Positions 1 to 64,000 of a stretch of 64,000 bases of DNA are shown piece after piece. The stretch is from Leucoraja ocellata. Lineage: Eukaryota. Position numbers and translations under genes: made by a program. Where the stretch lies: assembly GCA_036785375.1 (NCBI GenBank), contig JAWMAR010000801.1:434001-498000 (forward strand). The letters are read 5' to 3'. The notes under the pieces are model-generated. The model saw nothing but the letters and a program-made list of their open reading frames with translations, had not been told where the DNA came from and ran no database searches. The stretch's first letter is position 1. Every line of letters begins with the position of its first letter.

Positions 1-107
1 GAGTTTGTATTCTATCCTGACCTCGGGTGCTGTCTAGGCTGGGATTGCACGTTCTCCCTTTCACTGCCTGTGATCCCCCCAAGTTTTTAACAGAGGATGA
101 TACTGAC

Positions 108-146
108 CTGATGTAGTGGTGGTCCCAGATGTTGATGGAGTTATTT
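108..146 (-). CDS. Exon type D, 39 nt (EITPSTSGTTTTS)
   Basis: Acceptor ttttattt(c/t)actag|AAATAACT, donor CATCAG|gtcagt. Other intact copies start at + coordinates 10177, 20141, 25994, 38917, 44064, 51954, 57195. The copy at 63127 has lost its donor. Confidence 0.8.
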
Positions 147-3100
147 CTAGTAAAATAAAAAAATGTTATGTTCCACCGAGACAAACAAGAGGAATTGTTA
201 TGCAGTTTAGAATCCTTCAACAAGAATTTATCAACTGCTACCTTTTAATAAAACATGTTACACTTGATATTTCCTTCATCGTAGAAAAACGTAGGAGGAC
301 ATAGTATGCTGCTAAATTTATTTATCTGTCAATTAGCATATTAATATTTCCCTGCCATCTCGAACAATCACGACACATCGATTGTGGATATCCCTGCGTA
401 TCGAAACACGTCTTCCATACACTGTATGGTCTTCTTTACGCCATTATTACTAGCAGTATAGTTTCACGATTCATGCCCATAATGTGAGCGAAGATCAAAG
501 AATGGAGCCACAGTGCTGATGTTAGAAATGTTGCCCCATTGTCTAAAGATTAGCCAATGTTTACTAAAAGTGGTTTGACTCACCTGTTGTGGAACTGGTG
601 GTGGACTCAGTTGAGCCAGTTGTCAAAGATGTTGTTGGTGTTGTTCCTGGAGAGCAAATAGAAAAGAAATTACAGATTGAATTGCAAGAGTCAGCAATCA
701 ATTTCAGTAGGAGTCTGCACATTTTCCTGAGACTGGGATGAATGTTATCAATGTTCATTGCTCATGCCTAAGCAAAGGACATTTAGAAATGAACCAAATT
801 TTGCTTCATCATTTATCAAATGGAACGAAATCATGAAAAGACATTGTGATTTCTTGAAGAAAGTTCTGAACTCCTTCGTTGATCCATTTTGGAAAATCAT
901 GGAGCAGAAACAAAATTGTTTAATAACGTTTTCATGACCAAAAACTCCCAGAATAGTGGAAGAGGGGAAGGGAAGAAACTTTTCTACCAAAGTGAAAATC
1001 CTTGTCAATCAGCAGCTGAATATTTCAGGGCCATCACAAACAATTTCAATTTCTTAATGTACCAACTTCAGATTTTGTGGAAGCTCAGCAAGTATTCTAA
1101 GAACTACTGATCAGAAATTTAGAACATAAGGAGCGGTAAAGTGCCACAGCTGGGGCAACTCCTACCTCACAGCACCAGAGACTTCAGATTGATTTGTTCC
1201 GTGGGTGTTGTGTCCATGGAGATTACATGTACTTGCTGTTATGTGTGCCTTTCCTACAAGTGTCTGAAATATATTGTCACTAACCTGATGTAGTACTGGT
1301 AGTGGTCTCAGTTGTTGATGTAGTTGTTGGTGTTTCTAGTGAAAGAAAAGAATGCAATATTCAACCAAGACAGCAAGGTGGAATTGGTATACAGCTAACT
1401 ATTGATAGTCAGGAAACAATCAGCAGGAATTCATATGCTGGCACACTTAATTAAAATGTTTATCAGATGGCATTTTGATTCTTCATTGAATAAAATGGCA
1501 GGGCAAAATATACTTTTGATCAATCAGCGGCTGAATATTTCTGTGCCATCACAAATAATCCCGTTCTCTCTATACACCAGTTGCAGATTTCCTGGAAGAT
1601 CAACCGTTTTCCAATGACCGCAATGTCTACTTAATACCATAATTTTGAATAGTATGCAATGCGTGTACTATTGGTAAGCATGTCTGTTTATATGTCCCAT
1701 TGATACATGATCCTCAACTTGCGTAAAATGTGTTCATTCGAATCATAGTTTTGTTTTTTTGCTACGGAATGTCCGAAGAAATTGAGAAGCAGAAAACACC
1801 AACTTATATCCTCCACAAATCCGAACTATTTTGAAATTGTGCAATAATGTGGTCAAATTGTTATGAGCCAAACATTGACATCTTAACATGTATATTTGCA
1901 CAATTTATGCCAATAATGTAAGCAAATATGCAAGAAGTAAGTCACAAAGCTGATGTTAGCAATGTTGGCTCATTGTCTTTGATTTGCCAATGTTTATTGA
2001 AAGTGGGTTACACAAAAAAGCTGGAGAAACTCAGCGGGTGCAGCAGCATCTATGGAGTGAAGGAGATAGGCAACGTTTCGGGCCGAAACCCTATTAAAGA
2101 AAGTGGTTTGACTCACCTGTTGTGGAACTGGAGGTGGACTCAGTTGTACCAGTTGTCAAAGATGTTGTTGGTGTTGTTCCTGGAGAGCAAATAGAAAAGC
2201 ATTTACAAATTAAATTGCAAGAGTCACCAATCAATTTCAGTACGACACTAGACATTTTGCTGAGACCGGGCTGAATTTTAACAATGTTCATTGCTCATGC
2301 CTAAGCAAAGGACATTTAGAAATGAACCAAATTTTGCTTCATCATTTATCAAATGGAACGAAATCATGAAAAGACATTGTGATTTCTTGGAGAAAGCTCT
2401 GATCTCCTTCGTTGATCCATTTTGGAAAATCATGGAGCAGAAACAAAATTGTTTAATAACGTTTTCATGACCAAAAACTCCCAGAATAGTGGAAGAGGGG
2501 AAGGGAAGAAACTTTTCTACCAAAGTGAAAATCCTTGTCAATCAGCAGCTGAATATTTCAGGGCCATCACAAACAATTTCAATTTCTTAATGTACCAACT
2601 TCAGATTTTGTGGAAGCTCAGCAGGTATTCTAAGAACTACTGATCAGAAATTTAGAACATAAGGAGCGGTAAAGTGCCACAGCTGGTGCAACTCCTACCT
2701 CACAGCACCAGAGACTTCAGATTGATTTGTTCCGTGGGTATTGTGTGCATGGAGATTACATGTACTCCCTGTTATGTGTGCCTTTCCTACAAGTGTCTGA
2801 AATATATTGTCACTAACCTGATGTAGTACTGGTAGTGTTCTCAGTTGTTGATGTAGTTGTTGGTGTTACTACTGAAAGAAAATAATGCAATATTCAACCA
2901 AGACAGACAAGAGGTATTGATATACAGCTAACTGCTGGTAGTCAGGAAACCATCAGCAGGAATTCATATGCTAGCACCTTTATTAATATGTTTAACAGAG
3001 AGCATTTTTTTCCTTCGTAGAAAAATTGGCCGGGCATAATATACTTTTGATCAATCAGCTGCTGAATATTTCTGTGCCATAACAAATAAACCTGTTCTCT

Positions 3101-6100
3101 CTACACACCATTTGCGGATTTCCTGGTAGATCCACCGTCTACCAAAGACCGCAAGGTCTACTTAATAACATAATTTCTAATAGTATGGAATGTGTGCACT
3201 ATGGGTAAGCATGTCTGTTCATATGTCCCATTGATACATGATCCTCAACTTGCGTAAAATGTGTTCATTATAATCATGGTTTTGATTTTTGCTACGGAAT
3301 GCCCAAAGAAAATGAGAAGCAGAAAACACCAACTCATTTCCTTCACAAATCCGGACTATATTGAAATTGTGTCATAATTTGGTCAAATTGTTATGAGCAA
3401 ACATTGACATCTTAACATGTATATTTGCACAATTTATGCCAATAATGTAAGCAAATATGCAAGAACTAAGTCACAAAGCTGATGTTAGCAATGTTGGCTC
3501 ATTGTCTTTGATTTGCCAATGTTTATTGAAAGTGGTTTGACTCACCTGTTGTGGAACTGGAGGTGGATTCAGTTGTACCAGTTGTCAAAGATGTTGTTGG
3601 TGTTGTTCCTGGAGAGTAAATAGAAAAACATTTACAAATTGAATTGCAAAAGTCACCAAATCAATTTCAATACGACACTGCCCATTTTCCTGAGATTGGG
3701 CTGAATTTTAACAATGTTCATTGCTTGTGCCAAAGACAAAGACATTTAGAAGCAAATTTTGCTTCGTCATTTATCAATTGGACCGAAATTATGAAAAGAC
3801 ATTGTGATTTTTCAAGGAAAGTTCTAAACTCCTTCGTTGATCAATTTTGGAAAAATCAATGAGCAGAAACAAAACTGTTTCACAGCGTTGCCATGACCTA
3901 AGCCTCCCGGAATAGTGGAAGAGGTGAAGGGAAGAGACCTATTCTATAAAAGTAAAAATTCTTATCCATGTCCACTGAAAGGTGCCAGTCTCAATGCTCT
4001 TTTTTAAAATTATTGCAGGCAATCAGCACCAAAAGGCCTCCTTAATTCAGTAGTTGAATCTACATTTTTGTGGTGAGAATCTACATTTTTGGAATAAAGC
4101 AATGATCAAATGTTCCTGAAGAGGGTGCTATATAGAGCTTCACAAAACAAAGCACAGAGTCCTAAAGGAAAAGCTAACAAGATTGATAGACGATGTTACT
4201 AACCTGATGTAGTGCTGGTGGTGATCTCAGTTGTAGGTGTCGTTTCTAGTGAAAGAAAAGAATGCTGTATTCAAGTGGACAGACAAGAGGAATTTGTACA
4301 CAGTTCTTGAGCCATCAACAGGAATTAATGAGCTGGCACATTTTATGAAAACGTTTTACAAGTTGTCATTTTCTTCATCAGTATATAAAGCATGCGGCCA
4401 TACTATACGGCTGCATTACTATTTCCTTGTCAATCAGCAGCTGAATATTTCAGGGCCATCACAAATAATCCTGTTCTCTCTATACACCAGTTACAGATTT
4501 CCTGGAAGATCAACCGTTTTCCAATGACCGCAAGGTCTACTTAATACCATTATTTCTAATACCGTTATTCGTTGATCCATTTTTGAAAAATCTTTGAGCT
4601 GAAACAAAACAGTTTAACAGCGTTGCAATGACCAAAAACTCCCGGAATAGTGGAAGAGGCGAAGGGAAGAGACCTTATCTATAAAAGTGAAACTCCTTAT
4701 CTATGTCTACTGAAAGGTGCCAGACTCAATGCTCTTTTTAAAATTTTTGTAGGCAATCAGCACTAAAAGGCCTCCTTAATTCGGTAGTTTAATCTATATT
4801 TTCGTGGTGAGAATCTACATTTTTGGAATAAAACAATGAACAAATATTCCTGAAGAGGGTGCTATATAGAGCTTCACTAAACAAAGCACAGAGTCCTAAA
4901 GGAAAAGCTAACAAGATTGATAGAAGTTACTAACCTGATGTAGTGCTGGTTGTGGTCTCGGTTGTTGGTGTCGTTTCTAGTGAAAGAAAATAATGTTGTA
5001 TTCAAGTGGGGCAGCCAAGAGTAAATTGTACGTAGTTATACAGCCATCAACAGGTATTCATGGGCTGGCACATTTTATTAAAACCTTTTATCAGTTGTCA
5101 TTTTCTTCATCATTGAATAAAACGGTTTAGAATCCTTCAACAAGAATTTAACAACTGGCACCTTTTAATAAAACATGTTACACTTGATATTTCCTTCATC
5201 GTAGAAAAACGTAGAAGGACATAATATGCTGCTAAATTTATTTATCTCTGTCAATTAGCATATTAATATTTCCCTGCCATCTCGAACAATCACGACACAT
5301 CGATTGCGGATATCCCTGCGTATCGAAACACGTCTTCCATACAGTGTATGGTCTTCTTTAGGCCATTATTACTAGCAGTATAGTTTCACGATTCATGCCC
5401 ATAATGTGAGCGAAGATCAAAGAATGGAGCCACAGTGCTGATGTTAGAAATGTTGCCCCATTGTCTAAAGATTAGCCAATGTTTACTAAAAGTGGTTTGA
5501 CTCACCTGTTGTGGAACTGGTGGTGGACTCAGTTGAGCCAGTTGTCAAAGATGTTGTTGGTGTTGTTCCTGGAGAGCAAAGAGAAAAAAAAATTACAGAT
5601 TGAATTGCAAGAGTCAGCAATCAATTTCAGTAGGACTCTGCACATTTCCCTGAGACTGGGATGAATGTTATCAATGTTCATTGCTCATGCCTAAGCAAAG
5701 GACATTTAGAAATGAACCAAATTTTGCTTCATCATTTATCAAATGGAACGAAATCATGAAAAGACATTGTGATTTCTTGGAGAAAGTTCTGAACTCCTTC
5801 GTTGATCCATTTTGGAAAACATGGAGCAGAAACAAAATTGTTTAATAACGTTTTCATGACCAAAAACTCCCAGAATAGTGGAAGAGGGGAAGGGAAGAAA
5901 CTTTTCTACCAAAGTGAAAATCCTTGTCAATCAGCAGCTGAATATTTCAGGGCCATCACAAACAATTTCAATTTCTTAATGTACCAACTTCAGATTTTGT
6001 GGAAGCTCAGCAAGTATTCTAAGAACTACTGATCAGAAATTTAGAACATAAGGAGCGGTAAAGTGCCACAGCTGGGGCAACTCCTACCTCACAGCACCAG

Positions 6101-9100
6101 AGACTTCAGATTGATTTGTTCCGTGGGTGTTGTGTCCATGGAGATTACATGTACTCGCTGTTATGTGTGCCTTTCCTACAAGTGTCTGAAATATATTGTC
6201 ACTAACCTGATGTAGTACTGGTAGTGGTCTCAGTTGTTGATGTAGTTGTTGGTGTTTCTAGTGAAAGAAAAGAATGCAATATTCAACCAAGACAGCAAGG
6301 TGGAATTGGTATACAGCTAACTATTGATAGTCAGGAAACAATCAGCAGGAATTCATATGCTGGCACACTTAATTAAAATGTTTATCAGATGGCATTTTGA
6401 TTCTTCATTGAATAAAATGGCAGGGCAAAATATACTTTTGATCAATCAGCGGCTGAATATTTCTGTGCCATCACAAATAATCCCGTTCTCTCTATACACC
6501 AGTTGCAGATTTCCTGGACGATCAACCGTTTTCCAATGACCGCAATGTCTACTTAATACCATAATTTTGAATAGTATGCAATGCGTGTACTATTGGTAAG
6601 CATGTCTGTTTATATGTCCCATTGATACATGATCCTCAACTTGCGTAAAATGTGTTCATTCGAATCATAGTTTTGTTTTTTTGCTACGGAATGTCCGAAG
6701 AAATTGAGAAGCAGAAAACACCAACTTATATCCTCCACAAATCCGAACTATTTTGAAATTGTGCAATAATGTGGTCAAATTGTTATGAGCCAAACATTGA
6801 CATCTTAACATGTATATTTTCACAATTTATTCCAATAATGTAAGCAAATATGCAAGAAGTAAGTCACAAAGCTGATGTTAGCAATGTTGGCTCATTGTCT
6901 TTGATTTGCCAATGTTTATTGAAAGTGGTTTGACTCACCTGTTGTGGAACTGGAGGTGGACTCAGTTGTACCAGTTGTCAAAGATGTTGTTGGTGTTGTT
7001 CCTGGAGAGCAAATAGAAAAGCATTTACAAATTAAATTGCAAGAGTCACCAATCAATTTCAGTACGACACTAGACATTTTGCTGAGACTGGGCTGAATTT
7101 TAACAATGTTCATTGCTCATGCCTAAGCAAAGGACATTTAGAAATGAACCAAATTTTGCTTCATCATTTATCAAATGGAACGAAATCATGAAAAGACATT
7201 GTGATTTCTTGGAGAAAGCTCTGAACTCCTTCGTTGATCCATTTTGGAAAATCATGGAGCAGAAACAAAATTGTTTAATAACGTTTTCATGACCAAAAAC
7301 TCCCAGAATAGTGGAAGAGGGGAAGGGAAGAAACTTTTCTACCAAAGTGAAAATCCTTGTCAATCAGCAGCTGAATATTTCATGGCCATCACAAACAATT
7401 TCAATTTCTTAATGTACCAACTTCAGATTTTGTGGAAGCTCAGCAGGTATTCTAAGAACTACTGATCAGAAATTTAGAACATAAGGAGCGGTAAAGTGCC
7501 ACAGCTGGTGCAACTCCTACCTCACAGCACCAGAGACTTCAGATTGATTTGTTCCGTGGGTATTGTGTGCATGGAGATTACATGTACTCCCTGTTATGTG
7601 TGCCTTTCCTACAAGTGTCTGAAATATATTGTCACTAACCTGATGTAGTACTGGTAGTGTTCTCAGTTGTTGATGTAGTTGTTGGTGTTACTACTGAAAG
7701 AAAATAATGCAATATTCAACCAAGACAGACAAGAGGTATTGATATACAGCTAACTGCTGGTAGTCAGGAAACCATCAGCAGGAATTCATATGCTAGCACC
7801 TTTCTTAAAATGTTTAACAGAGAGCATTTTTTTCCTTCGTAGAAAAATTGGCCGGGCAAAATATACTTTTGATCAATCAGCTGCTGAATATTTCTGTGCC
7901 ATAACAAATAAACCTGTTCTCTCTACACACCATTTGCGGATTTCCTGGTAGATCCACCGTCTACCAAAGACCGCAAGGTCTACTTAATAACATAATTTCT
8001 AATAGTATGGAATGTGTGCACTATGGGTAAGCATGTCTGTTCATATGTCCCATTGATACATGATCCTCAACTTGCGTAAAATGTGTTCATTATAATCATG
8101 GTTTTGATTTTTGCTACGGAATGCCCAAAGAAAATGAGAAGCAGAAAACACCAACTCATTTCCTTCACAAATCCGGACTATATTGAAACTGTGTCATAAT
8201 TTGGTCAAATTGTTATGAGCAAACATTGACATCTTAACATGTATATTTGCACAATTTATGCCAATAATGTAAGCAAATATGCAAGAACTAAGTCACAAAG
8301 CTGATGTTAGCAATGTTGGCTCATTGTCTTTGATTTGCCAATGTTTATTGAAAGTGGTTTGACTCACCTGTTGTGGAACTGGAGGTGGACTCAGTTGTAC
8401 CAGTTGTCAAAGATGTTGTTGGTGTTGTTCCTGGAGAGTAAATAGAAAAACATTTACAAATTGAATTGCAAAAGTCACCAATCAATTTCAATACGACACT
8501 GCACATTTTCCTGAGATTGGGCTGAATTTTAACAATGTTCATTGCTTGTGCCAAAGACAAAGACATTTAGAAGCAAATTTTGCTTCGTCATTTATCAATT
8601 GGACCGAAATTATGAAAAGACATTGTGATTTTTCAAGGAAAGTTCTAAACTCCTTCGTTGATCAATTTTGGAAAAATCAATGAGCAGAAACAAAACTGTT
8701 TCACAGCGTTGCCATGACCTAAGCCTCCCGGAATAGTGGAAGAGGTGAAGGGAAGAGACCTATTCTATAAAAGTAAAAATTCTTATCCATGTCCACTGAA
8801 AGGTGCCAGTCTCAATGCTCTTTTTTAAATTATTGCAGGCAATCAGCACCAAAAGGCCTCCTTAATTCAGTAGTTGAATCTACATTTTTGTGGTGAGAAT
8901 CTACATTTTTGGAATAAAGCAATGATCAAATGTTCCTGAAGAGGGTGCTATATAGAGCTTCACAAAACAAAGCACAGAGTCCTAAAGGAAAAGCTAACAA
9001 GATTGATAGACGATGTTACTAACCTGATGTAGTGCTGGTGGTGATCTCAGTTGTTGGTGTCGTTTCTAGTGAAAGAAAAGAATGCTGTATTCAAGTGGAC

Positions 9101-12100
9101 AGACAAGAGGAATTTGTACACAGTTCTTGAGCCATCAACAGGAATTCATGAGCTGGCACATTTTATGAAAACGTTTTACAAGTTGTCATTTTCTTCATCA
9201 GTGTATAAAGCATGCGGCCATACTATACGGCTGCATTACTATTTCCTTGTCAATCAGCAGCTGAATATTTCAGGGCCATCACAAATAATCCTGTTCTCTC
9301 TATACACCAGTTACAGATTTCCTGGAAGATCAACCGTTTTCCAATGACCGCAAGGTCTACTTAATACCATTATTTCTAATACCGTTGTTCGTTGATCCAT
9401 TTTTGAAAAATCTTTGAGCTGAAACAAAACAGTTTAACAGCGTTGCAATGACCAAAAACTCCCGGAATAGTGGAAGAGGCGAAGGGAAGAGACCTTATCT
9501 ATAAAAGTGAAACTCCTTATCTATGTCTACTGAAAGGTGCCAGACTCAATGCTCTTTTTAAAATTTTTGTAGGCAATCAGCACTAAAAGGCCTCCTTAAT
9601 TCGGTAGTTTAATCTATATTTTCGTGGTGAGAATCTACATTTTTGGAATAAAACAATGAACAAATATTCCTGAAGAGGATGCTATATAGAGCTTCACTAA
9701 ACAAAGCACAGAGTCCTAAAGGAAAAGCTAACAAGATTGATAGATGTTACTAACCTGATGTAGTGCTGGTTGTGGTCTCGGTTGTTGGTGTCGTTTCTAG
9801 TGAAAGAAAATAATGTTGTATTCAAGTGGGGCAGCCAAGAGTAAATTGTACGTAGTTATACAGCCATCAACAGGTATTCATGGGCTGGCACATTTTATTA
9901 AAACCTTTTATCAGTTGTCATTTTCTTCATCATTGAATAAAACGTTTGCTACACTATACGTCTGAATTACTTTTTCCTTGTCTTTCAGAAATTGCAGCTG
10001 ATCAGGCGTTTAGAAAGATTGAGTTGGCACAGATGTGCAGCTGGAAGAGCTGCAGCCTCATGGTGTTAGGAGTTTGTATTCTATCCTGACCTCGGGTGCT
10101 GTCTAGGCTGGGATTGCACGTTCTCCCTTTCACTGCCTGTGATCCCCCCAAGTTTTTAACAGAGGATGATACTGACCTGATGTAGTGGTGGTCCCAGATG
10201 TTGATGGAGTTATTTCTAGTGAAATAAAAAAATGTTATGTTCCACCGAGACAAACAAGAGGAATTGTTATGCAGTTTAGAATCCTTCAACAAGAATTTAT
10301 CAACTGCTACCTTTTAATAAAACATGTTACACTTGATATTTCCTTCATCGTAGAAAAACGTAGGAGGACATAGTATGCTGCTAAGTTTATTTATCTGTCA
10401 ATTAGCATATTAATATTTCCCTGCCATCTCGAACAATCACGACACATCGATTGTGGATATCCCTGCGTATCGAAACACGTCTTCCATACACTGTATGGTC
10501 TTCTTTACGCCATTATTACTAGCAGTATAGTTTCACGATTCATGCCCATAATGTGAGCGAAGATCAAAGAATGGAGCCACAGTGCTGATGTTAGAAATGT
10601 TGCCCCATTGTCTAAAGATTAGCCAATGTTTACTAAAAGTGGTTTGACTCACCTGTTGTGGAACTGGTGGTGGACTCAGTTGAGCCAGTTGTCAAAGATG
10701 TTGTTGGTGTTGTTCCTGGCGAGCAAATAGAAAAGAAATTACAGATTGTATTGCAAGAGTCAGCAATCAATTTCAGTAGGAGTCTGCACATTTTCCTGAG
10801 ACTGGGATGAATGTTATCAATGTTCATTGCTCATGCCTAAGCAAAGGACATTTAGAAATGAACCAAATTTTGCTTCATCATTTATCAAATGGAACGAAAT
10901 CATGAAAAGACATTGTGATTTCTTGAAGAAAGTTCTGAACTCCTTCGTTGATCCATTTTGGAAAATCATGGAGCAGAAACAAAATTGTTTAATAACGTTT
11001 TCATGACCAAAAACTCCCAGAATAGTGGAAGAGGGGAAGGGAAGAAACTTTTCTACCAAAGTGAAAATCCTTGTCAATCAGCAGCTGAATATTTCAGGGC
11101 CATCACAAACAATTTCAATTTCTTAATGTACCAACTTCAGATTTTGTGGAAGCTCAGCAAGTATTCTAAGAACCACTGATCAGAAATTTAGAACATAAGG
11201 AGCGGTAAAGTGCCACAGCTGGGGCAACTCCTACCTCACAGCACCAGAGACTTCAGATTGATTTGTTCCGTGGGTGTTGTGTCCATGGAGATTACATGTA
11301 CTCGCTGTTATGTGTGCCTTTCCTACAAGTGTCTGAAATATATTGTCACTAACCTGATGTAGTACTGGTAGTGGTCTCAGTTGTTGATGTAGTTGTTGGT
11401 GTTTCTAGTGAAAGAAAAGAATGCAATATTCAACCAAGACAGCAAGGTGGAATTGGTATACAGCTAACTATTGATAGCCAGGAAACAATCAGCAGGAATT
11501 CATATGCTGGCACACTTAATTAAAATGTTTATCAGATGGCATTTTGATTCTTCATTGAATAAAATGGCAGGGCAAAATATACTTTTGATCAATCAGCGGC
11601 TGAATATTTCTGTGCCATCACAAATAATCCCGTTCTCTCTATACACCAGTTGCAGATTTCCTGGAAGATCAACCGTTTTCCAATGACCGCAATGTCTACT
11701 TAATACCATAATTTTGAATAGTATGCAATGCGTGTACTATTGGTAAGCATGTCTGTTTATATGTCCCATTGATACATGATCCTCAACTTGCGTAAAATGT
11801 GTTCATTCGAATCATAGTTTTGTTTTTTTGCTACGGAATGTCCGAAGAAATTGAGAAGCAGAAAACACCAACTTATATCCTCCACAAATCCGAACTATTT
11901 TGAAATTATGCAATAATGTGGTCAAATTGTTATGAGCCAAACATTGACATCTTAACATGTATATTTGCACAATTCATGCCAATAATGTAAGCAAATATGC
12001 AAGAAGTAAGTCACAAAGCTGATGTTAGCAATGTTGGCTCATTGTCTTTGATTTGCCAATGTTTATTGAAAGTGGTTTGACTCACCTGTTGTGGAACTGG

Positions 12101-54100: not shown

Positions 54101-57100
54101 ATTATGAAAAGTCATTGTGATTTTTTAAAGAAAGATCTAAACTCCTTCATTGATCCATTTTGGAAAAATCGTTGATCAGAAACAAATCTGTTTCACAGCA
54201 TTGCCATGACCAAAAACTCCCGGAATAGTGGGAGTGGCGAAGGGAAGAGACTATTTCTATAAAAGTGAAAATTCTTATCCATGTCTACTGAAACGTTCCA
54301 GCCTGAATGCTCTTTTAAAAATTATAGTGGTCTTCCAGCTCCAAAGGGCCTCCTTAATTTGGCAGTAGCTTCTAAATTTACGTGGTGAGAAACTACATTT
54401 TTGGAATAAAGCAATGAACAAATGTTCCTGAAGAGGGTGCTATATAGAGCTTCACTAAACAAAGCACAGAGTCCAAAAGTAAAATCTAACAAGAATGATA
54501 GATGATGTTACTAACCTGAAGTAGTGCTGGTGGTGGTCTCAGTTGTTGATGTCGTTTCTAGTGAAAGAAAATAATGCTGTATTCAAGTGGGGCAGCCAAG
54601 AGGAATTGTTACACAGTTATAAAGCCATCAACAGGAATTCATGGGCTGGCACATTTTATGAAAATGTTTTACGATATAGATTGGTTACTTCTTACAAATG
54701 TAAGCGAAGATAAACTGCTCAGCAAAAACAGACTGTGTCCCTCGCGCCCTCTCCAAGGAGTTCAGCGCCCAGCTCGCCTATTTCACCACCTCCACTAGGT
54801 GGGTCTCCGGTGCCGTCCCCGGCCACTTCCCCGTCACTTCACTGATGAATTGAATAAGGAGTGAGGCCGTACTATACGGCTGCATTACTATTTCCTGGTC
54901 AATCAGCAGCTGAATATTTCAGGCCATCACAAACATTTTCAATTTCTTAATGTACCAAGTTCAGATTTTGTGGAAGCTCAGCAAGTATTCTAAGAACTAC
55001 TGATCAGAACATTAGAACATAAGGAGCGGTAAAGTGCCACAGCTGGTGCAACTCTTTCCTCAAAGCACCAGAGACTTCAGATTGATTTATTCCATGGGTG
55101 TTGTGTGCATGGAGATTATATGTACCTGTTATGTGTGCCTTTCCTACAATTATCTGAAATATATTGTCACTAACCTGATGTAGTACTGGTAGTGGTCTCA
55201 GTTGTTGATGTAGTTGTTGGTGTTAATACTGAATGAAAATAATGCAATATTCAACCAAGACAGACAAGAGGTATTGATATACAGCTAACTGCTGGTAGTC
55301 AGGAAACCATCAGCAGGAATTCATATGCTAGCACCTTTATTAAAATGTTTAACAGAGAGCATTTTTTTCCTTCGTAGAAAAATTGGCCGGGCAATATATA
55401 CTTTTGATCAATCAGCTGCTGAATATTTCTGTGCCATAACAAATAAACCTGTTCTCTCTACACACCATTTGCGGATTTCCTGGTAGATCCACCGTCTACC
55501 AAAGACCGCAAGGTCTACTTAATACCATAATTTCTAATAGTATGGAATGTGTGCACTATGGGTAAGCATGTCTGTTCATATGTCCCATTGATACATGATC
55601 CTCAACTTGCGTAAAATGTGTTCATTATAATCATGGTTTTGTTTTTTGCTACGGAATGCCCAAAGAAAATGAGAAGCAGAAAACACCAACTAATTTCCTT
55701 TACAAATCCGGACTATATTGAAATTGTGTCATAATTTGGTCAAATTGTTATGAGCCAAATATTGACATCTTAACATGTATATTTGCACAATTTATGCCAA
55801 TAATGTAAGCAAATATGCAAGAACTAAGTCACAAAGCTGATGTTAGCAATGTTGGCTCATTGTCTTTGATTTGCCAATGTTTATTGAAAGTGGTTTGACT
55901 CACCTGTTGTGGAACTGGAGGTGGACTCAGTTGTACCAGTTGTCAAAGATGTTGTTGGTGTTGTTCCTGGAGAGTAAATAGAAAAACATTTACAAATTGA
56001 ATTGCAAAAGTCACCAATCAATTTCAATACGACACTGCACATTTTCCTGAGATTGGGCTGAATTTTAACAATGTTCATTGCTTGTGCCAAAGACAAAGAC
56101 ATTTAGAAGCAAATTTTGCTTCGTCATTTATCAATTGGACTGAAATTATGAAAAGACATTGTGATTTTTCAAGGAAAGTTCTAAACTCCTTCGTTGATCA
56201 ATTTTGGAAAAATCAATGAGCAGAAACAAAACTGTTTCACAGCGTTGCCATGACCTAAGCCTCCCGGAATAGTGGAAGAGGTGAAGGGAAGAGACCTATT
56301 CTATAAAAGTAAAAATCCTTATCCATGTCCACTGAAAGGTGCCAGTCTCAATGCTCTTTTTTAAAATTATTGCAGGCAATCAGCACCAAAAGGCCTCCTT
56401 AATTCAGTAGTTGAATCTACATTTTTGTGGTGAGAATCTACATTTTTGGAATAAAGCAATGATCAAATGTTCCTGAAGAGGGTGCTATATAGAGCTTCAC
56501 AAATCAAAGCACAGAGTCCTAAAGGAAAAGCTAACAAGATTGATAGACGATGTTACTAACCTGATGTAGTGCTGGTGGTGATCTCAGTTGTTGGTGTCGT
56601 TTCTAGTGAAAGAAAAGAATGCTGTATTCAAGTGGACAGACAAGAGGAATTTGTACACAGTTCTTGAGCCATCAACAGAAATTCATGAGCTGGCACATTT
56701 TATGAAAACGTTTTACTAGTTGTCATTTTCTTCATCAGTGTATAAAGCATGCGGCCATACTATACGGCTGCATTACTATTTCCTTGTCAATCAGCAGCTG
56801 AATATTTCAGGGCCATCACAAATAATCCTGTTCTCTCTATACACCAGTTACAGATTTCCTGGAAGATCAACCGTTTTCCAATCATCAACAGGTATTCATG
56901 GACTGGCACATTTTATTAAAACCTTTTATCAGTTGTCATTTTCTTCATCATTGAATAAAACGTTTGCCATTCTATACGTCTGATTTACTTTTTCCTTGTC
57001 TTTCAGAAATTGCAGCTGATCAGGCGTTTAGAAAGATTGAGTTGGCACAGATGTGCAGCTGGAAGAACTGCAGCCTCATGGTGTTAGGGATTTGTATTCT

Positions 57101-60100
57101 ATCCTGACCTCGGGTGCTGTCTAGGCTGGGATTGCACGTTCTCCCTTTCACTGCCTGTGATCCCCCCAAGTTTTTAACAGAGGATGATACTGACCTGATG
57201 TAGTGGTGGTCCCAGATGTTGATGGAGTTATTTCTAGTGAAATAAAAAAATGTTATGTTCCACCGAGACAAACAAGAGGAATTGTTATGCAGTTTAGAAT
57301 CTTTCAACAAGAATTTATCAACTGCTACCTTTTAATAAAACATGTTACACTTGATATTTCCTTCATCATAGAAAAACGTAGGAGGACATAGTATGCTGCT
57401 AAATTTATTTATCTGTCAATTAGCATATTAATATTTCCCTGCCATCTCGAACAATCATGACACATCGATTGTGGATATCCCTGCGTATCGAAACACGTCT
57501 TCCATACACTGTATGGTCTTCTTTACGCCATTATTACTAGCAGTATAGTTTCACGATTCATGCCCATAATGTGAGCGAAGATCAAAGGATGGAGCCACAG
57601 TGCTGATGTTAGAAATGTTGCCCCATTGTCTAAAGATTAGCCAATGTTTACTAAAAGTGGTTTGACTCACCTGTTGTGGAACTGGTGGTGGACTCAGTTG
57701 AGCCAGTTGTCAAAGATGTTGTTGGTGTTGTTCCTGGAGAGCAAATAGAAAAGAAATTACAGATTGAATTGCAAGAGTCAGCAATCAATTTCAGTAGGAC
57801 TCTGCACATTTTCCTGAGACTGGGATGAATGTTATCAATGTTCATTGCTCATGCCTAAGCAAAGGACATTTAGAAATGAACCAAATTTTGCTTCATCATT
57901 TATCAAATGGAACTAAATCATGAAAAGACATTGTGATTTCTTGGAGAAAGTTCTGAACTCCTTCGTTGATCCATTTTGGAAAATCATGGAGCTGAAACAA
58001 AATTGTTTAATAACGTTTTCATGACCAAAAACTCCCAGAATAGTGGAAGAGGGGAAGGGAAGAAACTTTTCTACCAAAGTGAAAATCCTTGTCAATCAGC
58101 AGCTGAATATTTCAGGGCCATCACAAACAATTTCAATTTCTTAATGTACCAACTTCAGATTTTGTGGAAGCTCAGCAAGTATTCGAAGAACTACTGATCA
58201 GAAATTTAGAACATAAGGAGCGGTAAAGTGCCACAGCTGGTGCAACTCCTACCTCACAGCACCAGAGACTTCAGATTGATTTGTTCCGTGGGTATTGTGT
58301 GCATGGAGATTACATGTACTCCCTGTTATGTGTGCCTTTCCTACAAGTGTCTGAAATATATTGTCACTAACCTGATGTAGTACTGGTAGTGGTCTCAGTT
58401 GTTGATGTAGTTGTTGGTGTTTCTAGTGAAAGAAAAGAATGCAATATTCAACCAAGACAGCCAGGTGGAATTGGTATACAGCTAACTATTGGCAGTCAGG
58501 AAACAATCAGCAGGAATTCATATGCTGGCACACTTAATTAAAATGTTTATCAGATGGCATTTTGATTCTTCATTGAATGTGTTCATTCGAATCATAGTTT
58601 TGTTTTTTGCTACGGAATATCCGAAGAAATTGAGAAGCAGAAAACACCAACTTATATCCTTCACAAATCCGAACTATTTAGAAATTGTGAAATAATGTGG
58701 TCAAATTGTTAAGAGCCAAACATTGACATCTTAACATGTATATTTGCACAATTTATGCCAATAATGTAAGCAAATATGCAAGAGTAAGTCACAAAGCTGA
58801 TGTTAGCAATGTTGGCTCATTGTCTTTGATTTGCCAATGTTTATTGAAAGTGGTTTGACTCGCCTGTTGTGGAACTGGAGGTGGACTCAGTTGTACCAGT
58901 TGTCAAAGATGTTGTTGGTGTTGTTCCTGGAGAGCAAATAGAAAAGCATTTACAAATTAAATTGCAAGAGTCACCAATCAATTTCAGTACGACACTGCAC
59001 ATTTTGCTGAGACTGGGCTGAATTTTAACAATGTTCATTGCTCGTGCCTAAGCAAAGGATATTTAGAAGTTAAACAAATTTTGCTTCGTCATTTATCAAT
59101 TGGACCGAAATTATGAAAAGACATCGTGATTTTTTAAAGAAAGATCTAAACTCCTTCATTGATCCATTTTGGAAAAATCATTGATCAGAAACAAATCTGT
59201 TTCACAGCGTTGCCATGACCAAAAACTCCCGGAATAGTTGGAGAGGCGAAGGGAAGAGACTATTTCTATAAAAGTGAAAATTCTTATCCATGTCTACTGA
59301 AACGTTCCAGCCTGAATGCTCTTTTAAAAATTATAGTGGTCTTCCTGCTCCAAAGGGCCTCCTTAATTTGGCAGTAGCTTCTAAATTTACGTGGTGAGAA
59401 ACTACATTTTTGGAATAAAGCAATGAACAAATGTTCCTGAAGAGGGTGCTATATAGAGCTTCACTAAACAAAGCACAGAGTCCAAAAGTAAAATCTAACA
59501 AGAATGATAGATGATGTTACTAACCTGAAGTAGTGCTGGTGGTGGCCTCAGTTGTTGGTGTCGTTTCTAGTGAAAGAAAATAATGCTGTATTCAAGTGGG
59601 GCAGCCAAGAGGAATTGTTACACAGTTATAAAGCCATCAACAAGAATTCATGAGCTGGCACATTTTATGAAAATGTTTTACTATATAGATTGGTTACTTC
59701 TTACTAATGTAAGCGAAGATAAACTGCTCAGCAAAAACAGACTGTGTCCCTCGCGGGCTCTCCAAGGAGTTCAGCGCCCAGCTCGCCTATTTCACCACCT
59801 CCACTAGGTGGGTCTCCGGTGCCGTCACCGACCTCTTCCCCGTCACTTCACCGATGAATTGAATAAGGAGTGAGGCCATACTATACGGCTGCATTACTAT
59901 TTCCTGGTCAATCAGCAGCTGAATATTTCAGGCCATCACAAAAAATTTCAATTTCTTAATGTACCAAATTCAGATTTTGTGGAAGCTCAGCAAGTATTCT
60001 AAGAACTACTGATCAGAACATTAGAACATAAGGAGCGGTAAAGTGCCACAGCTGGTGCAACTCTTTCCTCAAAGTACCAGATAATTCAGATTGATTTATT

Positions 60101-60278
60101 CCATGGGTGTTGTGTGCATGGAGATTATATGGATGTTTATGTTACATGTTGTGTCCTGTTTATGCATTTTATGATTTTGTTAACCCATCTTTATGCTTTG
60201 TATGGAACTGATTTTTAAATTATGTAAAGCACTTTGGGGTCAATGAAAATTGACTATAAATGTGCTATATAAATAAAC

Positions 60279-60338
<60 letters not shown>

Positions 60339-63300
60339 GTACCTGTTATGTGTGCCTTTCCTACAATTATCTGAAATATATTGTCACTAACCTGATGTAG
60401 TACTGGTAGTGGTCTCAGTTGTTGATGTAGTTGTTGGTGTTACTACTGAAAGAAAATAATGCAATATTCAACCAAGACAGCCAAGCGGTATTGATATACA
60501 GCTAACTGCTGGTAGTCAGGAAACCATCAGCAGGAATTCATATGCTAGCACCTTTATTAAAATGTTTAACAGAGAGCATTTTTTTCCTTCGTAGAAAAAT
60601 TGGCCGGGCAAAATATACTTTTGATCAATCAGCTGCTGAATATTTCTGTGCCATAACAAATAAACCTGTTCTCTCTACACACCATTTGCGGATTTCCTGG
60701 TAGATCCACCGTCTACCAAAGACCGCCAGGTCTACTTAATACCATAACTTCTAATAGTATGGAATGTGTGCACTATGGGTAAGCATGTTTGTTCATATGT
60801 CCCATTGATACATGATCCTCAACTTGCGTAAAATGTGTTCATTATAATCATGGTTTTGTTTTTTGCTACGGACTGCCCAAAGAAAATGAGAAGCAGAAAA
60901 CACCAACTCATTTCCTTTACAAATCCGGACTATATTGAAATTGTGTCATAATTTGGTAAAATTTTTATGAGCCAAACATTGACATCTTAACATGTATATT
61001 TGCACAATTTATGCCAATAATGTAAGCAAATATGCATGAAGTAAGTCACAAAGCTGATGTTAGCAATGTTGGCTCATTGTCTTTGATTTGCCAATGTTTA
61101 TTGAAAGTGGTTTGACTCACCTGTTGTGGAACTGGAGGTGGACTCAGTTGTACCAGTTGTCAAAGATGTTGTTGGTGTTGTTCCTGGAGAGTAAATAGAA
61201 AAACATTTACAAATTGAATTGCAAAAGTCACCAATCAATTTCAGTACGACACTGCACATTTTCCTGAGATTGGGCTGAATTTTAACAATGTTCATTGCTC
61301 GTGCCAAAGACAAAGACATTTAGAAGCAAATTTTGCTTCGTCATTTATCAATTGGCCCGAAATTATGAAAAGACATTGTGATTTTTCAAGGAAAGTTCTA
61401 AACTCCTTCGTTGATCAATTTTGGAAAAATCAATGAGCAGAAACAAAACTGTTTCACAGCGTTGCCATGACCTAAGCCTCCCGGAATAGTGGAAGAGGTG
61501 AAGGGAAGAGACCTATTCTATAAAAGTAAAAATCCTTATCCATGTCCACTGAAAGGTGCCAGTCTCAATGCTCTTTTTTAAAATTATTGCAGGCAATCAG
61601 CACCAAAAGGCCTCCTTAATTCAGTAGTTGAATCTACATTTTCGTGCTGAGAATCTACATTTTTGGAATAAAGCAACGATCAAATGTTCCTGAAGAGCGT
61701 GCTATATAGAGCTTCACAAAACAAAGCATAGAGTCCTAAAGGAAAAGCTAACAAGATTGATAGATGATGTTACTAACCTAATGTAGTGCTGGTGGTGATC
61801 TCAGTTGTCGGTGTCGTTTCTAGTGAAAGAAAAGAATGCTGTATTCAAGTGGACAGCCAAGAGGAATTTGTACACAGTTCTTGAGCCATCAACAGGAATT
61901 CATGAGCTGCCAGATTTTATGAAAACGTTTTACAAGTTGTCATTTTCTTCATCAGTATATAAAGCATGCGGCGATACTATATGGCTGCATTACTTTTTCC
62001 TTGTCAATCACCAGCTGAATATTTCAGGGCCATCACTTTCAATTTCTTAATGTACCAACTTCAGATTTTGTGGAAGCTCAGCAAGTATTCTAAGAACTAC
62101 TGATCAGAAATTTAGAACATAAGGAGCGGTAAAGTGCCACAGCTGGTGCAACTCCTACCTCACAGCACCAGAGACTTCAGATTGATTTGTTCCGTGGGTG
62201 TTGTGTGCATGGAGATTACATGTACTCGCTGTTATGTGTGCCTTTCCTACAAGTGTCTGAAATATATTGTCACTAACCTGATGTAGTACTGGTAGTGGTC
62301 TCAGTTGTTGATGTAGTTGTTGGTGTTTCTAGTGAAAGAAAATAACGCAATATTCAACCAAGACAGCCAAGAGGAATTGGTATACAGCTAAGGATTGGTA
62401 GTCAGGAAACCATCAGCAGGAATTCATATGCTGGCACACTTAATTAAAATGTTTAACAGATGGTATTTTTGTTCTTCGTAGAATAAAATGGCTGGGCAAA
62501 ATATACTTTTGATTAATCAGCAACTGAATAATTCGGTGCCATCACAAATAATCCTGTTCTATCTATAGACCCGTTGCGAATTTCCTGGAAGATCAACCGT
62601 CTTCCAAAGACCGCAAGGTCTACTTAATACCATTATTTCTAATACCATTATTCGTTGATCCATTTTTGAAAAATCTTTGAGCTGAAACAAAACAGTTTAA
62701 CTGCGTTGCATTGACCAATGGTTGTGGTCTCAGTTGTTGGTGTCGTTTCTAGTGAAAGAAAACAATGTTGTATTCAAGTGGGGCAGCCAAGAGTAAATTG
62801 TACGTAGTTATACAGCCATCAACAGGTATTCATGGGCTGGCACATTTTATTAAAACCTTTTATCAGTTGTCATTTTCTTCATCATTGAATAAAGCGTTTG
62901 CCATGTATACATCTGAATTAGTTTTTCCTTGTCTTTCAGAAATTGCAGCTGATCAGGCGTTTAGAAAGATTGAGTTGGCACAGATGTGCAGCTGGAAGAG
63001 CTGCAGCCTCATAGTGTTAGGGATTTGTATTCTATCCTGACCTCGGGTGCTGTCTAGGCTGGGATTGCACGTTCTCCCTTTCACTGCCTGTGATCCCCCC
63101 AAGTTTTTAACATAGGATGATACTGTCTGATGTACTGGTGGTCCCAGATGTTGATGGAGTTATTTCTAGTGAAATAAAAAAAATGTTATGTTCCACCGAG
63201 ACAAACAAGAGGAATTGTTATGCAGTTTAGAATCCTTCAACAAGAATTTATCAACTGGCACCTTTTAATAAAACATGTTACACTTGATATTTCCTTCATC

Positions 63301-63668
63301 ATAGAAAAATGTAGGAGGACATAGTGTGCTGCTAAATTTATTTATCTCTGTCAATTAGCATATTAATATTTTCCTGCCAACTCGAACAATCATGCCACAT
63401 CGATTGCGGATATCCCTGCGTATCGAAACACGTCTTCCTTACACTGTATGGTCTTCTTTACGCCATTATTACTAGCAGTATAGTTGCACGATTCATGCCC
63501 ATAACGTGAGCGAAGATAAAAGAATGGAGCCACAGTGCTGATGTTAGAAATGTTGCCCCATCGTCTAAAGATTAGCCAATGTTTACTAAAAGTGGTTTGA
63601 CTCACCTGTTGTGGAACTGGTGGTGGACTCAGTTGTGCCAGTTGTCAAAGATGTTGTTGGTGTTGTTC
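108..63668 (-). CDS. Internal portion of a very large multi-exon mucin-like (Thr/Ser/Pro-rich) gene; ~98 short symmetric exons, ~1,670 aa in this window; both gene ends lie outside it
   Basis: The minus strand shows repeated Y-tract-AG / exon / GT(G,T,C)AGT blocks, all multiples of 3 and phase 1-1. One unit in transcript order reads ETTPTTETTTSTTS-ETTPTTEITTSTTS-GTTPTTSLTTGTTESTSSSTT-(V)VTPTTTSTTENTTSTTS-GTTPTTSLTTGTTESTSSSTT-ETPTTTSTTETTTSTTS-GTTPTTSLTTGSTESTTSSTT-EITPSTSGTTTTS. I saw no stop or indel in the 95 intact exons, while introns carry many indels. Confidence 0.88.
584..646 (-). CDS. Exon type A1, 63 nt (GTTPTTSLTTGSTESTTSSTT)
   Basis: Acceptor tttctatttgctctccag|GAACAAC, donor ACAACAG|gtgagt. 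The peptide is visible inside ORF 564..758(-). Other copies start at 5506, 10653, 15469, 20617, 26470, 31387, 39393, 44538, 48723, 52433, 57671, 63606. Confidence 0.88.
1285..1335 (-). CDS. Exon type B, 51 nt (ETPTTTSTTETTTSTTS)
   Basis: Acceptor ttcttttctttcactag|AAACACC, donor CATCAG|gttagt. Other copies start at 6207, 11354, 16170, 21318, 27171, 32088, 40093, 45239, 49424, 50793, 53134, 58372, 62278. Confidence 0.85.
2007..2098 (-). mobile_element. 92-bp retroelement fragment with 8-bp target-site duplication (gaaagtgg)
   Basis: Absent from most A2 modules; TSD at 1999-2006 and 2099-2106. The minus strand reads agggtttcggcccgaaacgttgcctat...gatgctgctgcacccgctgagtttctccagcttttttgtgt. Family assignment (Penelope-like terminal repeat or SINE) and strand are from recall only. 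Confidence 0.8.
2117..2179 (-). CDS. Exon type A2, 63 nt (GTTPTTSLTTGTTESTSSSTT)
   Basis: Same splice signals as A1. Other copies start at 6939, 12086, 16902, 28003, 32820, 34249, 35678, 40825, 46071, 50155. Confidence 0.88.
2818..2871 (-). CDS. Exon type B', 54 or 51 nt depending on the tandem acceptor ((V)VTPTTTSTTE[N/T]TTSTTS)
   Basis: Acceptor ttattttctttCAG-TAG-TAACACC (NAGNAG), donor CATCAG|gttagt. Other copies start at 7640, 12786, 17603, 28704, 33521, 34950, 36379, 41526, 46772, 55175, 60392. The copy at 23367 is interrupted. Confidence 0.83.
3546..3608 (-). CDS. Exon type A3, 63 nt (GTTPTTSLTTGTTESTSSSTT)
   Basis: Acceptor tttttctatttactctccag, donor gtgagt. Other copies start at 8368, 13512, 18331, 24184, 29430, 37107, 42254, 47500, 55904, 61121. 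Confidence 0.88.
4204..4245 (-). CDS. Exon type C, 42 nt (ETTPTTEITTSTTS)
   Basis: Acceptor ttcttttctttcactag|AAACGAC, donor CATCAG|gttagt. Other copies start at 9024, 14168, 18989, 24841, 30086, 37764, 42911, 56561, 61778. Confidence 0.85.
4935..4976 (-). CDS. Exon type C', 42 nt (ETTPTTETTTSTTS)
   Basis: Acceptor ttattttctttcactag, donor gttagt. Other copies start at 9755, 14899, 19720, 25572, 30817, 38495, 43642, 48154, 51533. A truncated copy lies at ~62719. Confidence 0.85.
22049..22111 (-). CDS. A-type exon with non-canonical GC donor
   Basis: The + strand reads tgactcGcctg instead of tgactcAcctg, giving CAG|gcgagt. The same occurs at 53856-53918 and 58864-58926. Confidence 0.55.
22708..22749 (-). 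CDS. Exon type C'', 42 nt (ETTPTTETTTSTTS) of the variant block
   Basis: Acceptor ctttcactag, donor CTTCAG|gttagt. Other copies at 54516-54557 (P>S) and 59525-59566 (T>A). Confidence 0.78.
22865..23040. other. ~175-bp partly GC/CpG-rich foreign segment in the variant-block intron (also ~54673-54848 and ~59682-59857)
   Basis: It replaces the short caagttgtcattttcttcatc stretch of normal C introns. Its composition is unlike the AT-rich array and I found no clear TSD. Confidence 0.6.
23367..23508 (-). pseudogene. Disrupted B' exon (pseudo-exon)
   Basis: An 85-bp insertion plus duplicated target lies inside the exon, giving a frameshift and TGA in the mucin frame. The donor has changed from gttagt to gttaat. 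Confidence 0.75.
23414..23498 (+). mobile_element. 5'-truncated non-LTR retrotransposon 3' end with (GAATCT)3 tail
   Basis: Unique 85 bp ending aattaaaatt-gaatct-gaatct-gaatct, flanked by duplicated (t)ggt. Absent from the other 12 B' copies. Confidence 0.72.
27893..27984 (-). mobile_element. Second copy of the 92-bp insertion at the homologous site
   Basis: Same sequence and gaaagtgg TSD as 2007-2098. Confidence 0.8.
32820..37106. repeat. Local triplication of the 1429-bp A2+B' segment
   Basis: A-type exons fall at 32820, 34249, 35678, 37107 and B' exons at 33521, 34950, 36379, an exact 1429-bp period. Confidence 0.92.
45961..46052 (-). mobile_element. Third copy of the 92-bp insertion at the homologous site
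   Basis: Same sequence and gaaagtgg TSD as 2007-2098. Confidence 0.8.
60132..60331 (+). mobile_element. 5'-truncated LINE/SINE 3' end (L2/CR1-group-like) with stem-loop, AATAAA and (TTA)n tail
   Basis: 200 bp between attatatg duplications (60124-60131 and 60332-60339); the empty site is seen at ~55115. Contains agcac..gtcaat-gaaa-attgac..gtgct, then tatataaataaa. Confidence 0.8.
60279..60335. repeat. (TTA)19 microsatellite, tail of the inserted element
   Basis: Direct reading. Confidence 0.95.
62716..62748 (-). pseudogene. Truncated C' exon lacking its normal donor
   Basis: A ~311-bp deletion joins intronic ...tgaccaa to exonic tggttgtggtctc.... The acceptor is intact. Confidence 0.65.
63127..63165 (-). 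pseudogene. D exon with destroyed donor
   Basis: The + strand reads tactgtctgatg versus tactgacctgatg in the 8 other D copies, so CAG|gtcagt has become CAG|acagta. Confidence 0.65.
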
Positions 63669-64000
63669 CTGGAGAGCAAATAGAAAAAAAATTACAGATT
63701 GAATTGCAAGAGTCAGCAACCAATTTCAGTAGGACTCTGCACATTTTCCTGAGACTGGGATGAATGTTATCAATGTTCATTGCTCATGCCTAAGCAAAGC
63801 ACATTTAGAAATGAACCAAATTTTGCTTCATCATTTATCAATTGGAACAAAATCATGAAAAGACATTGTGATTTTTTGAAGAAAGTTCTGAACTCCTTCG
63901 TTGATCCATTTTGGAAAATCATTGAGCAGAAACAAAATTGTTTAATAACGTTTTCATGACCAAAAACTCCCAGAATAGTGGAAGAGGGGAAGGGAAGAAA

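Follow-up and report, generated by a model that had tools for sequence, protein, structure and literature searches.

A skate MUC19-clade gel-forming mucin gene with a Thr/Ser repeat core probably spliced from about 143 phase-1 mini-exons

A stretch of 64,000 nucleotides from Leucoraja ocellata (the window; positions 1..64000, equal to C801:434001-498000, where C801 is contig JAWMAR010000801.1) was analysed after an initial annotation, made from the letters alone, had described it as a giant mucin-type Pro-Thr-Ser (PTS) domain built from small interchangeable exons. The window lies wholly within the repeat array of one minus-strand gene, here called gene 1. The parts of the gene, in contig positions, and of the window, in window positions, are as follows.

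C801:550758 down to 413380, minus strand: gene 1, with the window entirely inside
C801:550758-516289, minus strand: likely signal peptide and D1-D2-D'-D3 domains, 29 exons, ATG at 550,758, ending in phase 1
C801:515060-421230, minus strand: whole PTS array, about 94 kb
C801:420695-413380, minus strand: VWC-like segment and cystine knot, 5 exons, starting in phase 1
108..63668, minus strand: central part of the gene 1 PTS array, 98 of ~144 array units, introns mostly 380-830 nt
63606..63668, minus strand: example A exon, 63 nt, TTPTTSLTTG-type, 38 copies, donor GTGAGT (GC in 3)
62278..62328, minus strand: example B exon, 51 nt (54 via a tandem acceptor), 26 intact copies
61778..61819, minus strand: example C exon, 42 nt, 24 copies, one truncated
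57195..57233, minus strand: example D exon, 39 nt, 9 copies, one without donor
23367..23505, minus strand: B exon lengthened to 139 nt by an 88-nt insertion, which brings a frameshift and a stop, with a +5 change in the donor (GTTAAT)
63127..63165, minus strand: defective D copy, donor lost
62716..62748, minus strand: defective C copy, 3' end deleted, sole donor the weak GTCAAT
55175..55228, minus strand: B copy with proximal AG lost, usable only as the 54-nt form through the upstream AG

Cataloguing by homology gave 98 units in the window: 38 A (63 nt), 26 B (51 nt), 24 C (42 nt) and 9 D (39 nt), together with a 27th B that carries the insertion. This agrees with the initial annotation, whose counts for the minus strand between 108 and 63668 were 38 A, 27 B, 24 C and 9 D. 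The higher-order succession of units is irregular (e.g. CABABADC). An AG acceptor, a GT or GC donor and a length divisible by three are kept in 95 of the 98 units, the three defective ones being the D at 63165, the C at 62748 and the B at 23505. GC donors occur in 3/38 A exons of the window and in 7/52 across the array, while the CAGTAG tandem acceptor (51/54 nt) is found in 11 of the 26 catalogued window B copies and tandem acceptors in 15/36 array-wide. In-frame length variants were met five times (A54, B48, two C36, D45) compared to a single frameshifting insertion, an excess to be read with caution since codon-like repeats favour three-base slips anyway. The non-exonic share of the window is 92%. 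Tandem Repeats Finder, run on the window with a period limit of 500, reported nothing beyond a TTA run; a (TTA)19 microsatellite lies at window positions 60279-60336, in one intron copy only.

The reading frame of the array was examined by scanning. A phase-1 scan of the minus strand gave 107 acceptor hits (tandem acceptors counted twice), compared to none in phases 0 and 2 of that strand, none in any of the three phases of the plus strand, and 2 hits, the three phases taken together, in 127 kb of unique flanking control sequence. When frame was ignored, 141 of 160 donor-defined segments in the array were divisible by three, compared to 13/37 in control regions, and the off-frame segments within the array belonged mostly to one family of intronic pseudo-exons with a GC donor. 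Translation of 96 window exons (the doubtful 33-nt C included) yielded 1,678 aa, of which 76.3% are Thr or Ser; the only charged residues are 134 Glu and 1 Arg, and Cys and aromatics are absent, so the composition first described for this domain stands. One Pro per exon had also been claimed, and is found in 93 of the 96 but fails in 3. Junction codons encode only Glu, Gly or Val. The proposal that any exon can join any other goes too far: it fails for the 139-nt B, which frameshifts, and in 21 of 38 C exons an off-frame AG 19 nt upstream competes with the acceptor. Exons were more conserved than their adjacent introns in 12 of 12 family pairs compared; for A and the 63-nt exon of a sister gene (gene 0, below), identity is 0.92 in the exon and 0.55/0.73 in the flanking introns.

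The complete model of gene 1 has 176 exons, all with AG and GT/GC sites, and 11,529 nt encoding 3,842 aa without an internal stop. It takes 142 PTS exons, with the doubtful 33-nt exon in and the donor-less D and the insertion-bearing B left out, and its PTS domain is 2,472 aa long (76% Thr and Ser). Single N-terminal exons match the Pfam VWD, C8 and TIL families, and the 29-exon N-terminal model shares 65-69% identity with three full-length homologs from sharks and rays; the signal peptide was assigned through homology only. The gap between the last PTS exon and the first C-terminal exon is 534 nt, and the last exon matches PF00007 (cystine knot) with a score over the cut-off. Signal peptide, VWD and cystine-knot exons thus flank the array on its own strand, as expected if it encodes the PTS domain of a mucin. 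On the other haplotype, carried by contig C252, the proteins encoded by the N- and C-terminal exons show 99.8% and 100% identity and no splice site is broken. The RefSeq protein XP_055509561.1 of L. erinacea joins A-B-A-D-C-A-D'-F to VWC-CK (cystine knot), as in our model; it is a 305-aa fragment of the gene 1 3' end comprising eight PTS exons and VWC-CK, without the D domains. Part of the gene neighbouring gene 1 matches one L. erinacea protein without a difference. With N-terminal D domains, a central PTS domain and a C-terminal cystine knot all predicted from the sequence, gene 1 has the organisation of a gel-forming mucin. By analogy with known mucins, we infer that its product would be secreted, densely O-glycosylated, dimerised through the cystine knot and polymerised through D3.

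To place gene 1 among the gel-forming mucins, a D3 tree was built (133 columns, 39 rows, 7 of them under half filled, midpoint root). Gene 1, all its C252 paralogs and mammalian MUC19 formed one clade with support of 98/94. The skate loci on contig C11 fell outside it, and the two tested matched MUC2/5 best; the MUC2/5-like skate loci sit on C11/C399. Among the 77 hits of a D3 exon search, most of the named ones were mucin-19 or mucin-19-like and the named mammalian mucins were all MUC19; this exon scored 76-88 bits against mammalian MUC19-type proteins compared to 52-55 bits against human MUC2/5AC/5B. A C.CD.EGKYLGFC-type motif is present. Mammalian MUC19 is not known to have a D4 between PTS and cystine knot, and gene 1 has none there. 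MUC19 is syntenic with LRRK2 and CNTN1; the single COR-A match, used as a marker of LRRK2 synteny, lay on a contig other than that of the mucin cluster, in a comparison that did not extend to the cluster ends. Membership of MUC2/MUC5AC/MUC5B was rejected on the D3 clade, a replaced D-C-E-C/Cys1088 motif and the lack of a single large PTS exon. A trefoil integumentary mucin, as implied by the RefSeq name FIM-C.1, was likewise rejected, only Cys_knot being found in protein P0078 and trefoil domains being absent. The equivalent of MUC2 Cys1088 is not Cys in gene 1 or in other MUC19-type hits, whereas that of Cys1130 is apparently kept, as judged by eye. The MUC2 Cys1088Ala mutant still dimerises (PMC7599080), so that D3 linking of the gene 1 product through the Cys1130 equivalent is plausible.

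C252 diverges from C801 by about 1%, and its gene 1 array has 149 units compared to 144 on C801, the two being collinear at their edges only. Alleles with different numbers and orders of exons are what recombination predicts, in support of the earlier suggestion that the length of the domain can change at the DNA level. Collectively, these results make it very likely that the window corresponds to the repeat core of an intact skate MUC19-clade gel-forming mucin gene, in which a Thr/Ser domain of ~2,470 residues is predicted to be spliced from ~143 phase-1 mini-exons (39-75 nt), with alleles that differ in exon number and order, likely by unequal recombination between exon-plus-intron units. 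Since the array is 92% intron and all its exons are in phase 1, crossovers would nearly always fall in introns and preserve the frame. Such an array could become longer or shorter, pass from one paralog to another and shed flanking domains with the protein unbroken. Exon skipping would be tolerated, and would be needed for at least one poison exon.

Several observations weigh against this assignment. The 139-nt B exon has both its splice sites and is identical on the other haplotype; its donor is weakened (5.0 vs 7.2). Because it frameshifts while keeping both sites, a full-length product demands that it be skipped. Four RNA runs (4 of 24, tissues not stated), inspected over the 3' end of the array and four C-terminal exons, gave zero depth in the bins of the C-terminal exons and no splice joint of these exons among the joints listed. 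RNA depth was dominated by interspersed repeats, with one contig run showing low depth only in the bin containing an A exon. Recent variants among 473 exon copies comprise 42 non-synonymous, 17 synonymous and 0 stop changes, compared to 366:169:14 possible; they look neutral, and the codon test gave no selection signal. Acceptor scores of B, C and D are 2-9 compared to 4.7-14 for the gene's own exons, which puts them near the bottom of that range or under it, RefSeq models are predictions, and long repeats can be misassembled.

Gene 1 belongs to a cluster of at least 10 Muc19-type D3 loci on C252. Phase-1 mini-exon arrays are present at 7 of the 10 (gene 0, gene 1, a hybrid gene and gene 2, described below, and loci at 346, 1821 and 2238 kb) and a long single PTS exon at 3 (gene 3, 1415 kb and 1511 kb), the five distant loci having been sampled over 30-60 kb only. 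The loci at 346, 1821 and 2238 kb have no mini-exons in phases 0 or 2, and the successive mini-exons at 2238 kb are matched in order by a RefSeq protein of Rhinoraja with 59-94% identity. The N-terminal exons of the sister gene 0 are 96% identical to those of gene 1; its array (C252 about 1,128,000-1,254,700) is a regular six-exon 2.84-kb repeat with about 125 phase-1 exons. This array is only about 72% identical to that of gene 1, although the flanking introns are 89% identical. The CysD and D4 of gene 0 lie in a 19-kb segment that is cleanly absent from gene 1. As gene 0 retains them, gene 1 probably lost its D4 independently of mammalian MUC19. A D3-PTS-VWC-CK arrangement without D4 was also found in a sawfish homolog. 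Listing the open reading frames of the array flanks gave nothing informative except further mucin exons. Elsewhere, a paralog at C252 2,244,000-2,277,000 has a 4.25-kb repeat unit holding CysD exons plus mini-exons, a plus-strand mucin has its CysD-D4 exon set duplicated about 18.8 kb apart (C252 404,800-414,000 and 423,600-432,000), and two identical C8 exons, otogelin-like by resemblance, lie 205 kb apart on C40 (about 5.857 and 6.062 Mb).

Material of gene 1 type was also found inside the paralog gene 2.

C801:340291-309825: gene-1-type block inside gene 2, 30.5 kb

The block is 92-97% identical to the gene 1 array, introns included, has sharp edges inside introns and precedes gene 2's own, unrelated phase-1 mini-exon array. 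Its 5' edge is identical in all three gene-2-type copies and its 3' edge on both haplotypes. The N-termini of the two genes share 56-58% protein identity, with a four-fold Jukes-Cantor distance of 0.76-0.80 and introns that cannot be aligned. Since gene 1 has diverged edge units and the sister gene 0 has a homologous array, we infer that the block travelled from gene 1 to gene 2. Our model of gene 2 is a rough one, free of stops but with 5-7 junctions per copy unresolved. Its own array (C801 281,900-308,500) has His/Pro/Lys-containing exons with HHPPP and VHHS motifs and many tandem acceptors; with the imported block ahead of it, gene 2 would have a PTS domain of two chemistries. A transposon-like element adjoins the 5' edge of the block at C801 about 340,300-340,900, and a quick test found no terminal inverted repeat in it. 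The gene-2 N-terminus (C252 830,000-875,000 and paralogous copies) seems, in this rough model, to be without several of the VWD cysteines of gene 1.

An extra 167-kb unit on C252 is a hybrid comprising a gene-2 N-terminus, a gene-1-type array and a gene-1 C-terminus. Any two of the three versions of the duplicated unique segment are 1.26-1.44% apart, compared to 0.93-0.97% between haplotypes elsewhere. This suggests three distinct copies, and the hybrid gene is probably real rather than an artefact. Within the gene-2 5' region C801 has a run of 200 N, where a whole 167-kb unit could be missing, so a copy-number difference between the haplotypes is not established. None of the following was part of the initial annotation: the assignment to MUC19, the architecture across the cluster, the transfer of the block, the hybrid gene and the loss of CysD-D4. 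Tentatively, phase-1 mini-exon PTS arrays may be both the original and the prevailing design of the Muc19 cluster in cartilaginous fish (7 of 10 loci, the deepest branch included), with the single-exon PTS derived. On the same tentative footing, such arrays may serve as a platform for exon shuffling, on which some 30 kb passed into a paralog that had diverged long before, crossover inside that block gave rise to a hybrid, CysD-D4 was dropped in frame, and splicing maybe adds length variation within an animal.

One allele could, on the stronger claim of the initial annotation, give many PTS lengths through regulated or stochastic exon skipping, a reading we consider possible but rather less than even in its chances. 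It fits the phase 1 of every intact exon, the mixed strength of the splice sites with their GC donors (7/52 A) and tandem acceptors (15/36 B), and the poison exon, which demands some skipping; frog FIM-C.1, moreover, is reported to be polymorphic via alternative splicing (PMC7177656). The four RNA runs, however, yielded no transcript evidence for it, tandem duplication of a single ancestral exon accounts for the phase symmetry with no need of a splicing function, and chicken MUC2 gave just one PTS splice variant (PMC3549977). Regulated skipping as a means of tuning length is put forward here as a hypothesis.

Faulty assembly of the long repeat is an unlikely source of the hybrid gene and of the allelic differences. 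The 200-N run in the gene-2 5' region of C801 would allow this, as would a 7.3-kb tandem duplicate at C252 716,162-730,751, which at 99.99% identity is either very recent or itself an artefact. C252, however, is free of N from 500 kb to 1.1 Mb, the three unique-segment versions differ by more than the haplotypes do elsewhere, and the block edges are common to both haplotypes. A recent disabling of gene 1, with the poison exon included or the gene silent and the array drifting neutrally, seems more improbable still. It would account for the neutral look of recent variants, the frameshifting exon on both haplotypes, the lack of reads on gene 1 exons in the four RNA runs and the deletion of CysD-D4 relative to gene 0. 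Yet all 34 of the 34 non-repeat exons are intact on both haplotypes, the poison exon has a weakened donor, a RefSeq model exists, and the sawfish homolog shares the architecture without D4. That the array is a satellite or segmental repeat that encodes nothing and has A/C-rich motifs resembling exons, a reading for which only the 92% non-exonic share speaks, is highly improbable given the strict phase-1, single-strand signal, the position of the array exactly between the D3 and VWC exons with matching phase, the conservation of exons above introns and the unrelated arrays that other paralogs carry at the same position.

The preferred reading, an intact MUC19-clade gene with a mini-exon PTS core, has parallels in several known systems. 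With the MUC19/submaxillary mucin/spiggin group gene 1 shares the D3 clade with mammalian MUC19, the C.CD.EGKYLGFC-type motif and the tandem cluster. Human MUC19 also has many short exons. Its central repeat exon is reported to be uninterrupted (PMC13345508), unlike gene 1, where the whole PTS domain is in mini-exons; in human MUC2/MUC5AC/MUC5B-type mucins the PTS is a single exon (PMC9712336). Stickleback spiggin has tandem duplicates and chimeric genes formed through unequal crossing over (PMC4989455). Three Muc19 paralogs are reported in Callorhinchus (PMC4948705), compared to at least 10 D3 loci on a skate haplotype. The precedent first named, that of Xenopus integumentary mucins, holds but is wider than stated, and includes chicken Muc13, frog Otogl and schistosome SmPoMuc. 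Chicken Muc13 has one PTS repeat per exon with near-identical exons, and its authors proposed length control by recombination and splicing and suggested that a multi-exon PTS is ancestral (PMC1552070). The one-repeat-per-exon layout is alike, but Muc13 belongs to the transmembrane mucins with a SEA domain and has 12 or more repeats, all of one type, whereas gene 1 encodes a gel-forming mucin and its ~143 exons fall into four main types. In Xenopus, the gel-forming mucin Otogl (MucXS) has its mucin domain spread over several exons (PMC5789918). Otogl and FIM-B.1/C.1 belong to other mucin lineages, and transfer between paralogs is not mentioned in the portions of text compared. SmPoMuc is the closest mechanistic analogue; to our knowledge it has no VWD or cystine knot. 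It has a 27-nt exon in exon-plus-intron repeats of about 1 kb, with concerted evolution that includes the introns and ectopic exchange between genes (PMC2576457), but encodes small parasite proteins of an unrelated family with at most about 20 repeats. Among openly accessible papers, our literature search found none on the exon structure of elasmobranch Muc19.

The design is known in kind, and unusual in its scale and in the visible shuffling between paralogs. The locus of gene 1 provides a much larger, haplotype-resolved case of a multi-exon PTS in a gel-forming mucin, which automatic annotation shrinks to a misnamed 305-aa fragment (integumentary mucin C.1-like). With mini-exon and single-exon paralogs side by side, the ideas of an ancestral multi-exon design and of length control by splicing become testable in one cluster. 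Gene 1 illustrates how symmetric exons would let mucins swap or drop domains without frameshifts.

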